NCBI RefSeq assembly: GCF_988242995.1
Contig: NZ_OZ547043.1
Direction: 5' to 3' (one strand)
Length of the DNA: 64,000 nucleotides
The notes under the pieces: generated by a model
Databases searched by the model: none
Told to the model about the DNA's origin: nothing
What the model saw: the letters and a program-made list of their open reading frames with translations, nothing else
Program-made: the position numbers and the translations under genes
Shown: piece by piece, positions 12,459 to 22,175 of the stretch
Numbering within the stretch: the stretch's first letter is position 1
How the letters are laid out: each line of letters opens with the position of its first letter

Positions 12459-12884
12459 GTGCAGTTAACGAGTTTCACTGATTACGGATTACGTGCGCTG
12501 ATCTACATGGCGTCATTGCCAGAAGGGCGGATGACCAGTATTTCTGAAGTGACTGACGTCTACGGCGTCTCCCGTAATCATATGGTCAAAATAATCAATC
12601 AACTTAGTCGTGCCGGCTACGTGACTGCTGTTCGTGGAAAAAATGGCGGCATTCGTCTGGGTAAACCGGCGAGTGCGATACGTATTGGTGATGTGGTGCG
12701 CGAGCTGGAGCCCTTATCGCTGGTGAATTGCAGCAGTGAGTTTTGCCACATTACACCTGCCTGTCGGTTGAAACAGGCGCTTTCTAAGGCCGTGCAAAGT
12801 TTTCTTACGGAACTGGATAACTACACGCTTGCCGATTTGGTTGAAGAGAATCAACCGCTTTATAAATTATTGCTGGTGGAGTGA
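12459..12884 (+). CDS. nsrR: nitric-oxide-sensing transcriptional repressor NsrR (Rrf2 family)
   Basis: 141-aa ORF, GTG start; Rrf2 HTH and Cys ligands ([12 protein letters not shown]). Confidence 0.93.
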
Positions 12885-12922
12885 CGAAAATCTTCATCAG
12901 AGATGACAACGGAGGAACCGAG

Positions 12923-15364
12923 ATGTCACAAGATCCTTTCCAGGAACGCGAAGCTGAAAAATACGCGAATCCCATCCCTAGTCGGGAATTTATCCTCGAA
13001 CATTTAACCAAACGTGAAAAACCGGCCAGCCGTGATGAGCTGGCGGTAGAACTGCACATTGAAGGCGAAGAGCAGCTTGAAGGCCTGCGTCGCCGCCTGC
13101 GCGCGATGGAGCGCGATGGTCAACTGGTCTTCACTCGTCGTCAGTGCTATGCGCTGCCGGAACGCCTCGACCTGGTGAAAGGTACCGTTATTGGCCACCG
13201 TGATGGCTACGGCTTTCTGCGGGTTGAAGGGCGTAAAGATGATTTGTATCTCTCCAGCGAGCAGATGAAAACCTGCATTCATGGCGATCAGGTGCTGGCG
13301 CAGCCGCTGGGTGCTGACCGTAAAGGTCGTCGTGAAGCGCGTATTGTCCGCGTACTGGTGCCAAAAACCAGCCAGATTGTTGGTCGCTACTTTACCGAAG
13401 CGGGCGTCGGCTTTGTGGTTCCTGACGACAGTCGTTTGAGCTTCGATATCTTAATCCCGCCCGATCAGATCATGGGCGCGCGGATGGGCTTTGTGGTGGT
13501 GGTTGAACTGACCCAACGCCCGACTCGCCGTACCAAAGCGGTGGGTAAAATCGTCGAAGTACTTGGCGACAATATGGGCACCGGCATGGCGGTTGATATC
13601 GCTCTGCGTACCCATGAAATTCCGTATATCTGGCCGCAGGCCGTTGAGCAACAGGTTGCCGGGTTGAAAGAAGAAGTGCCGGAAGAAGCAAAAGCGGGCC
13701 GTGTCGATTTGCGCGATTTACCGCTGGTCACCATTGATGGCGAAGACGCCCGTGACTTTGACGATGCAGTTTACTGTGAGAAAAAACGCGGCGGCGGCTG
13801 GCGTTTATGGGTCGCGATTGCCGACGTCAGCTACTATGTGCGTCCGCCAACGCCGCTGGACAGAGAAGCGCGTAACCGTGGCACGTCGGTGTACTTCCCT
13901 TCGCAGGTTATCCCGATGCTGCCGGAAGTGCTCTCTAACGGCCTGTGTTCGCTCAACCCGCAGGTAGACCGCCTGTGTATGGTGTGCGAGATGACGGTTT
14001 CGTCGAAAGGCCGCCTGACTGGCTACAAATTCTACGAAGCGGTGATGAGCTCTCACGCGCGTCTGACCTACACCAAAGTCTGGCATATTCTGCAGGGCGA
14101 TCAGGATCTGCGCGAGCAGTACGCCCCGCTGGTTAAGCATCTCGAAGAGTTGCATAACCTCTATAAAGTGCTGGATAAAGCCCGTGAAGAACGCGGCGGG
14201 ATCTCATTTGAGAGCGAAGAAGCGAAGTTCATTTTCAACGCTGAACGCCGTATTGAACGTATCGAACAGACTCAGCGTAACGACGCACACAAGTTAATTG
14301 AAGAGTGCATGATTCTGGCGAATATCTCGGCGGCGCGTTTCGTTGAGAAAGCGAAAGAACCGGCACTGTTCCGTATTCACGACAAGCCGAGCACCGAAGC
14401 GATTACCTCTTTCCGTTCAGTGCTGGCGGAGCTGGGGCTGGAACTGCCGGGCGGTAACAAGCCGGAACCGCGCGACTACGCGGAGTTGCTGGAGTCGGTT
14501 GCCGATCGTCCTGATGCAGAAATGCTGCAAACCATGCTGCTGCGCTCGATGAAACAGGCGATTTACGATCCGGAAAACCGTGGTCACTTCGGTCTGGCAT
14601 TGCAGTCCTATGCGCACTTTACTTCGCCGATTCGTCGTTATCCTGACCTGACGCTGCACCGCGCCATTAAGTATCTGCTGGCGAAAGAGCAGGGGCATCA
14701 GGGTAACACCACTGAAACCGGCGGCTACCATTATTCGATGGAAGAGATGCTGCAACTGGGTCAGCACTGTTCGATGGCGGAACGTCGTGCCGACGAAGCA
14801 ACACGCGATGTAGCTGACTGGCTGAAGTGTGACTTCATGCTCGACCAGGTAGGTAACGTCTTTAAAGGCGTAATTTCCAGCGTCACTGGCTTTGGCTTCT
14901 TCGTCCGTCTGGACGACTTGTTCATTGATGGTCTGGTCCATGTCTCTTCGCTGGACAATGACTACTATCGCTTTGACCAGGTAGGGCAACGCCTGATGGG
15001 TGAATCCAGCGGCCAGACTTATCGCCTGGGTGATCGCGTGGAAGTTCGCGTCGAAGCGGTTAATATGGACGAGCGTAAAATCGACTTTAGCCTGATCTCC
15101 AGCGAACGCGCACCGCGCAACGTCGGTAAAACGGCGCGCGAGAAAGCGAAAAAAGGCGATGCAGGCAAAAAAGGCGGCAAGCGTCGTCAGGTCGGTAAAA
15201 AGGTAAACTTTGAGCCAGACAGCGCCTTCCGCGGCGAGAAAAAAACGAAGCCGAAAGCGGCGAAGAAAGACGCGAGAAAAGCGAAAAAGCCATCGGCGAA
15301 AACGCAGAAAATAGCTGCAGCGACCAAAGCGAAGCGTGCGGCGAAGAAAAAAGTGGCAGAGTGA
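12923..15364 (+). CDS. rnr: ribonuclease R
   Basis: ORF 12881-15364; start at ATG 12923 ([14 protein letters not shown]...) gives 813 aa; RNB domain, S1 domain, Lys-rich tail. Confidence 0.95.
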
Positions 15365-15454
15365 TCATAACCCTCTTCAAACAGAAGAGGGTGAATTATC
15401 CGTAGGCCGGGCAAGCGTGGCGCTCCCGGCAAAACGTAAACAACGAGTACATTA

Positions 15455-16186
15455 ATGAGCGAAATGATTTACGGCATCCACGCAGTGCAGGCCCTGCTGG
15501 AGCGCGCCCCTGAACGTTTTCAGGAAGTCTTTATTTTAAAAGGCCGTGAAGATAAACGTCTGTTACCGCTGATTCACGCCCTTGAGTCCCAGGGCGTGGT
15601 TATCCAGTTGGCGAACCGTCAGTATCTCGACGAGAAAAGCGACGGTGCCGTGCATCAGGGCATTATCGCCCGCGTGAAGCCAGGACGTCAGTACCAGGAA
15701 AACGATCTGCCGGATCTGATCGCTTCGCTCGATCAGCCGTTCCTGCTGATCCTCGACGGTGTAACCGATCCGCACAACCTCGGCGCGTGCCTGCGTAGCG
15801 CGGACGCCGCAGGTGTTCATGCGGTGATTGTGCCGAAAGATCGCTCCGCACAGCTCAACGCCACGGCGAAAAAAGTAGCCTGCGGCGCGGCAGAAAGCGT
15901 TCCGCTGATTCGGGTGACTAATCTTGCGCGCACCATGCGTATGTTGCAGGAAGAGAATATCTGGATCGTCGGTACGGCAGGTGAGGCGGATCATACACTC
16001 TATCAGAGCAAAATGACCGGACGGCTGGCACTGGTGATGGGCGCGGAAGGTGAAGGTATGCGTCGCCTGACCCGTGAACATTGCGACGAGTTGATCAGCA
16101 TCCCAATGGCAGGAAGCGTTTCTTCCCTGAACGTTTCGGTTGCGACAGGGATTTGCTTATTTGAAGCGGTGCGTCAGCGCAGCTAG
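15455..16186 (+). CDS. rlmB: 23S rRNA (guanosine2251-2'-O)-methyltransferase RlmB
   Basis: 243-aa SpoU-family ORF. Confidence 0.95.
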
Positions 16187-16203
16187 TTCCTCTGAATTAT
16201 GAA

Positions 16204-16234
16204 AAGCCATCCAGATTTGGATGGTTTTTTTTTG
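16204..16234 (+). terminator. rho-independent terminator after rlmB
   Basis: Hairpin gccatcca-gattt-tggatgg followed by 9 T. Confidence 0.7.
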
Positions 16235-17431: not shown

Positions 17432-17481
17432 TTTTTTTGCCAGCCTCACTGCAAGGCTGGCAACTATTTTAAGGATAAAAT

Positions 17482-22140: not shown

Positions 22141-22175
22141 AGCCGGACAAGGCGCTCGCGCCGCATCCGGCATTG
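22141..22175. repeat. REP (repetitive extragenic palindrome) element
   Basis: gccggacaaggcgctcgcgccgcatccggca, typical REP consensus. Confidence 0.6.

Follow-up and report, generated by a model that had tools for sequence, protein, structure and literature searches.

The 90-nt spacer between rnr and rlmB (15365-15454) of the window, by which we mean the whole 64-kb stretch of DNA that was analysed, contains two hairpins. By analogy with REP elements elsewhere, we consider it probable that these are two ordinary extragenic palindromes within the nsrR-rnr-rlmB mRNA that act as barriers to exonucleases and so stabilise the rnr segment. They are not terminators, RNase III sites or structures that sequester the rlmB ribosome binding site (RBS). 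Judged from its sequence and predicted fold, the downstream palindrome (hairpin 2) is a REP element, and the upstream one (hairpin 1) most likely derives by decay from a BoxC/PIT-type palindrome, with nothing but the hairpin module of that family left. Neither the REP identity of hairpin 2 nor the polymorphism of the spacer within Escherichia coli, described below, was part of the initial annotation of this region. The positions of the features are collected in the table.

Features of the rnr-rlmB spacer and its surroundings, in window positions
Feature	Position	Strand	Remarks
rnr (RNase R) stop codon TGA	15362-15364	+	open reading frame 12881-15364; name from the RefSeq annotation under the match
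Hairpin 1	15370-15392	+	perfect 9-bp stem, loop AAACA; single-copy; resembles the BoxC hairpin module
AU-rich single-stranded linker GAAUUAUCC	15393-15401	+	unpaired in the centroid fold
REP: GTAG tag (15402-15405) and hairpin 2 (15406-15430)	15402-15431	+	6-bp basal stem, CA bulge, 4-bp upper stem, UGG loop
rlmB translation start: SD-like GAG (15445-15447) and ATG (15455-15457)	15445-15457	+	unpaired with either hairpin
Canonical intrinsic terminator 3' of rlmB	16201-16230	+	13-bp stem followed by a T-run; from the terminator scan

The gene names rnr and rlmB were confirmed from the RefSeq annotation of near-identical E. coli genomes. The initial annotation had placed the rnr stop at 15364 and the rlmB start at 15455, both correctly, and the two hairpins that it described between them are real, save for one transcription slip in which G15384 was counted twice ('aaacag-gaagaggg'). 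Folding of the 111-nt segment 15355-15465 gave a minimum free energy (MFE) of -33.6 with a z-score of -3.0, and the centroid fold consisted of exactly the two hairpins. In hairpin 1, the arm at 15370-15378 (ACCCTCTTC) pairs with that at 15384-15392 (GAAGAGGGT) around a loop at 15379-15383, and when folded alone this element had a dG of -15.1 kcal/mol (z -5.8), with none of 200 shuffled sequences being equally stable. In hairpin 2, GCCGGG (15406-15411) pairs with CCCGGC (15425-15430), and above a 2-nt bulge the inner positions 15414-15417 pair with 15421-15424. Hairpin 2 folded alone had a dG of -17.0 kcal/mol and a z of only -1.6, since the stretch is GC-rich, and 14 of 200 shuffles were equally stable; its energy alone is within chance, and it is non-random through being a copy of a REP.

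The genes nsrR-rnr-rlmB-yjfI have been described as one operon (PMC3534368), and a 14-gene operon with rlmB as its last gene has also been described (PMC4161252). A sequence scan of the spacer found no promoter-like site for rlmB, so the gene depends on read-through from upstream. A ACGAGTAC motif upstream of rlmB is conserved in other Enterobacteriaceae, and the GAG and ATG of rlmB lie at least 14 nt past the REP and were single-stranded in both the MFE and centroid folds. Scanning 14800-16000 against Rfam 15 at E <= 10 returned chance-level matches only (a fly lncRNA and a microRNA, with E values of 0.95 and 2.8, far under the gathering score).

REPs have been defined as short, extragenic, palindromic sequences with a shared motif that are present in many copies per genome (PMC12306157), and a structural rule used to search for them places GTAG (or GTGG) 0-2 nt 5' of a bulged hairpin with a basal stem of 7-20 bp (PMC6006769). 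Hairpin 2 is extragenic, forms a bulged GC-rich palindrome with a 3-nt loop, has a GTAG abutting its stem, and shares the REP consensus; its basal stem of 6 bp is 1 bp under the search rule of PMC6006769. The GTAG tag, the bulged GC-rich stem, the length of 25-30 nt and the extragenic location between two genes of one operon are all as in the REPs and BIMEs of E. coli and Salmonella. It differs from these in being solitary rather than one of an inverted pair, in its shorter basal stem, and in the low copy number of its exact subtype, for which about one other near-identical copy per genome was found at the sensitivity used. A sensitive search of genomes without this allele matched hairpin 2 at 30 of 33 positions to a REP inside the gdhA-ynjI BIME, where it lies beside a classical REP, and against the REP that one S. 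enterica (L097) carries in this spacer, 23 of 25 positions agreed. Hairpin 2 also lies where the K-12 spacer has the second REP of its BIME, with the same orientation, and REPs of the same subtype were observed at this spacer position in S. enterica, S. bongori and Citrobacter, the last with a single REP-like hairpin. A repeat search found no second copy of either hairpin within the 64-kb window; canonical REPs were present elsewhere in the window, near 22142 and at 48259-48358 and 57794-57868. Among seven Escherichia versions of hairpin 2, two stem pairs carried double changes (G-C/U-A and A-U/G-C), with half-changed intermediates observed in K-12 and in strain Z1323CEC0015.

Hairpin 1 was found in all ten sampled Escherichia variants, E. 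albertii included, and a query with either of its alleles matched at most one place per E. coli genome, always at the rnr locus. Two major alleles jointly cover approximately all of the 5,426 complete E. coli genomes, one with a C-G closing pair and the loop AAACA (about 2,600 genomes), and the other with a U.G closing pair or a loop length differing by 1 nt (about 2,800 genomes). Over the ten Escherichia variants, 98.9% of the stem cells were paired, with the only changes in the stem being two C-to-U substitutions that give U.G and the loss of the terminal A-U in one strain; no double compensatory change was found in the stem among these variants. A C-to-U change on the mRNA strand gives a G.U pair in the sense RNA and an A.C mismatch in the antisense strand, a pattern that we count in favour of a role of the stem in the mRNA. 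Between the rnr stop and the stem lie 5 nt in the window and 5-6 nt across the Escherichia variants, and both these 5 nt and the sequence following the stem were more variable than the stem itself. In L084, which carries the UTI89-type allele, rnr ends in the tandem stops TGA-TAA, with one extra nucleotide before hairpin 1.

RNase E prefers to cleave at RN↓WUU, with the arrow marking the cut. Reading the linker 3' of hairpin 1, we found a GA↓AUU that fits this preference, and a counterpart, AG↓AUU, in the long-form spacers. The linker site is a candidate for RNase E cleavage, for which a motif this short is weak evidence.

The BoxC elements, also known as PIT or TMECO, have an intrastrand-triplex consensus of CCCTCNCCC N3-6 GGGNGAGGG N3 GGGNGAGGG and are present in K-12 as 23 copies with high identity to one another (PMC4666352). 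We observed complete BoxC copies directly 3' of the rnr stop, all in one orientation, in Enterobacter cloacae, E. hormaechei, Pseudocitrobacter and strain RIT691, with the layout CCCTCACCC-N3-CCCTCTCCC-loop-GGGAGAGGG. Comparison with hairpin 1 was made with a pair table anchored at the base of the stem, as automatic alignment misaligned the arms. Pairs b1-b6 of hairpin 1 are those of the BoxC hairpin (CCCTCTCCC/GGGAGAGGG), while b7 is U-A instead of the C-G of BoxC, and the stem is shorter at its upper end. A further variant of the hairpin, with C-G in place of U-A at b6, was observed in S. bongori. The arms of hairpin 1 (CCCTCTTC and GAAGAGGG) thus match the first two BoxC blocks except for one compensated pair, and the full copies in other genera share its place and orientation after rnr. 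Set against the three-block consensus, however, hairpin 1 has these two altered blocks and is flanked on neither side by a third one, G-rich or C-rich, which makes a triplex impossible here, and it is single-copy in E. coli where BoxC is a repeat. For lack of a third block and of repetition we do not count hairpin 1 as a member of the BoxC family; its pairing pattern makes a decayed copy the most likely origin.

Two forms of the spacer were observed in E. coli. The 90-nt form of the window, with hairpin 1 and one REP, was present in 1,579 of the 5,426 complete genomes (29%), and a 179-nt K-12-type form, with hairpin 1 and a two-REP BIME, in 3,843 (71%). In the K-12 spacer (L001, 6097-6275), hairpin 1 is followed by a canonical REP (GCCGGATGCGGCGTGAACGCCTTATCCGGCCTAC), a linker, and an inverted second REP (GTAGGCCGGATAAACGTAGTGCATCAGGCA), which together make up the BIME. 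The window spacer is without the first REP and the linker, and has GTAGGCCGGGCAAGCGTGGCGCTCCCGGCA, that is, hairpin 2 with its GTAG tag, at the position of the second. Matches to the K-12 spacer numbered 40 or more in each E. coli genome, and the REP/BIME part of this spacer is therefore a genome-wide repeat. The long allele adds 89 nt between the genes and leaves the RBS-proximal sequence unchanged; E. albertii has the long form. What exactly the spacer contains is dispensable, given its variation within the species, and this variation constitutes a common presence/absence polymorphism. Each allele of hairpin 1 (15378-15384) was seen with both spacer forms, which implies either recombination between sites only tens of nucleotides apart or recurrent mutation.

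Across 80 species the rnr-rlmB spacer ranged from 0 to 318 nt and was unalignable outside Escherichia. Spacers of the Enterobacterales were hypervariable and carried unrelated palindromes, and those of the Vibrionaceae, Pasteurellaceae and Alteromonadales were mostly 0-30 nt with no hairpin. In about 29 of the 37 Enterobacterales spacers of at least 45 nt, a hairpin with a folding energy of -10 kcal/mol or lower began no more than 32 nt after the stop, with the first hairpin of other genera beginning 2-32 nt after the rnr stop at no conserved distance. As a base-rate control, the co-directional spacers of 45-350 nt in the window were scored over the first 75 nt after the stop, and 10 of these 17 reached a z of -3 or lower. 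Since equally strong structure was present in these 10 control spacers, a post-rnr hairpin in about 29 of 37 Enterobacterales spacers is not far above background and is an ordinary finding, and we dropped positional conservation of this hairpin as strong functional evidence. A genuine hairpin and T-run terminator was observed in the spacer of two other Enterobacteriaceae (L004 and L011), and a conserved promoter-like motif, GGTTATAAT, in five loci (L004, L006, L014, L016, L017), which suggests that rlmB may be transcribed separately in species with such a terminator or motif. The spacers of L012, L011 and L067 measured 301-318 nt, leaving room for an inserted small gene or element.

Some S. 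enterica have a spacer that is likewise 90 nt long and matches that of the window with 92% identity, and their hairpin 1 agrees with ours throughout (23 of 23 positions). At third codon positions, rlmB was only 66% identical between E. coli and S. enterica, and the spacer identity exceeds this synonymous rate with a binomial P of 3e-9. We rejected purifying selection on the spacer as the explanation, as the high identity spilled over into both genes, by approximately 120 nt in rnr and 240 nt in rlmB, and within this tract S. enterica was much nearer to E. coli than to S. bongori (loci L090, L091 and L096 against L093 and L097). Identity of S. enterica to E. coli and to S. bongori, respectively, was 95% and 77% over the last 120 nt of rnr, 92% and 60% over the spacer, and 95% and 80% over the first 240 nt of rlmB. 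Outside the block, at -600 to -121 of rnr, the corresponding values were 82.8% and 87.4%. Because the high identity extends beyond the spacer and reverses the relationship to S. bongori, the comparison indicates a tract of about 450 nt (approximately 15245-15690) exchanged between genera, and not long-term constraint on the hairpins. Non-coding identity between E. coli and Salmonella should accordingly be read with caution, as recombination of a tract, and not selection, can be its source. One other S. enterica had a different spacer of 63 nt, with the REP only and no hairpin 1. In S. bongori (L093, 901-1194), rlmB was called as a 97-aa fragment, and its ungapped identity to the other loci collapsed after about 290 nt, which indicates a frameshifted rlmB, either a pseudogene or an assembly error.

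The initial annotation had named compensatory changes as the check on whether the base-pairing is conserved, and such changes do occur, at two pairs in hairpin 2 and, against the BoxC-type homologues, at two stem positions in hairpin 1. They are no proof of locus-specific function, because each hairpin is a member or a derivative of a family of palindromic repeats. The double changes of hairpin 2 in particular are not locus-specific evidence, since the REP family is palindromic and prone to gene conversion. The same caution applies to palindromic repeat families at large, where compensatory changes alone do not prove a local RNA function.

Of the roles that the initial annotation had offered, a stabilising element is the one that held up best. 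Passages of PMC12306157 describe REP hairpins in RNA as barriers to ribonucleolytic degradation that stabilise upstream mRNA and may attenuate, and report that gdhA mRNA changes in stability when the REP 3' of the gene is deleted, which by analogy makes stabilisation the best-supported functional reading for a REP such as hairpin 2, with a neutral relic as its strong rival. REP-containing mRNAs have also been found to be degraded by RNase R and PNPase (PMC12320835). The spacer resembles REP-type stabilisers, such as the 3' REP of gdhA and intercistronic REPs, in having a stable stem-loop 3' of a coding region, and differs from them in that a function in the rnr-rlmB spacer is assigned by analogy only. 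In the preferred reading, an endonuclease would first cleave the operon transcript where it is AU-rich and single-stranded, in the GA↓AUU linker or in the A-rich region 3' of the REP. This would leave the stem-loops as the 3' terminus of the upstream fragment, where they would slow 3'-to-5' exonucleases, such that the rnr segment outlives the rlmB segment. We infer every one of these steps, from cleavage through capping of the fragment to the slowing of its decay. Adams et al. 2021 list in their Term-seq tables no 3' ends for K-12 between 4406146 (upstream of nsrR) and 4416378; since even the rlmB terminator is absent from them, this gap says nothing for or against ends in the spacer.

A very improbable extension of this reading is an autoregulatory loop, in which the level of RNase R would in turn affect how long rnr mRNA lasts, through the stop-proximal stem-loop and the REP, cold-shock stabilisation would operate through the same structures, and stalled termination at hairpin 1 could provide a link to tmRNA. 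Stabilisation of rnr transcripts on cold shock in E. coli was reportedly seen by Cairrao et al. in 2003. If stabilisation or such feedback were true, it would be a small addition to how the level of RNase R is set relative to that of a co-transcribed rRNA methyltransferase.

The strongest competitor, which we consider possible but a good deal less likely than the decay barrier, is that the hairpins are neutral relics of the REP/BIME and BoxC families in a permissive spacer, with no measurable effect on rnr or rlmB. The two spacer forms in E. coli, the range of 0 to 318 nt with hypervariable content across Enterobacterales, and the short hairpin-free spacers of many gamma-proteobacteria are all as expected of relics, as is the frequency of post-stop hairpins in the window control. 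BoxC/PIT elements, moreover, had neither promoter nor terminator activity when assayed (PMC4666352). The strain-variable form of the spacer and the one S. enterica without hairpin 1 argue that nothing in it is essential. Relics alone, however, sit less easily with the preservation of hairpin 1 in all the Escherichia variants sampled, against variable flanks and a variable REP region, or with the general stabilisation of upstream mRNA by REPs, as stated in passages of PMC12306157. An unlikely alternative is centred on the rnr stop codon: because the stem of hairpin 1 starts 5 nt after it, a terminating ribosome must melt the base of the hairpin, and slowed termination would lead to mRNA cleavage, tmRNA tagging and less RNase R. 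Such an effect has a precedent, as a passage of PMC12306157 attributes to Liang, Rudd and Deutscher 2015 the finding that REPs less than 16 nt from a stop codon lower translation, and hairpin 1 falls inside this interval with a stable stem (-12 to -15 kcal/mol) and a nearly constant distance in all Escherichia variants. The published effect is for REPs, however, and hairpin 1 is not a REP. Hairpin 2, which is one, starts at a distance of 41 nt from the stop, outside the interval, and the distance from the stop to the first stem, in addition, is not kept in other genera.

Slightly more doubtful still is an attenuator, by which the REP, or the BIME in the long allele, would cut read-through into rlmB and lower the ratio of rlmB to rnr. 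REP hairpins are mentioned as possible attenuators in passages of PMC12306157, with BIME attenuation credited to Espeli et al. 2001, and a genuine terminator does stand at this position in some genera, as in L004 and L011. The hairpins of the window share with Rho-independent terminators a GC-rich stem-loop 3' of a gene, but differ from them in having no U-tract. As the initial annotation had observed, no T-run comes after either of them (their 3' flanks read GAATTATC and AAAACGTA), and its view that they are unlikely to be intrinsic terminators agrees with our scan, which called the terminator of rlmB and neither of these. The description of rnr and rlmB as one operon (PMC3534368; PMC4161252) and the reliance of rlmB on read-through also stand against attenuation. 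We regard as extremely unlikely an RNase III site or a translational-coupling structure governing rlmB initiation, both of which had been suggested in the initial annotation, and for which the one favourable point is that two stable helices separate the genes. RNase III needs about two helical turns, that is, roughly 20 bp or longer of double-stranded RNA. With lengths of 9 bp and 6+4 bp, the helices here fall well short of this, and processing by the enzyme found no support. Coupling fared no better, given the 90-nt gap between stop and start, the unpaired GAG and ATG of rlmB in the MFE and centroid folds, and an insertion in the long allele that does not alter the RBS-proximal sequence.

What looked like a purpose-built pair of hairpins is a REP and a BoxC-like relic in a spacer that is polymorphic in E. 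coli and has been exchanged between genera, a result of little consequence outside annotation. Mildly noteworthy at most are two by-products, the dimorphism of the spacer across the species and the tract recombined between genera. In the next-but-one co-directional spacer downstream in the window, we also observed a strong hairpin at 17432-17481 (GCCAGCCTCACTGCAAGGCTGGC, z = -5.6) without a clear T-run.
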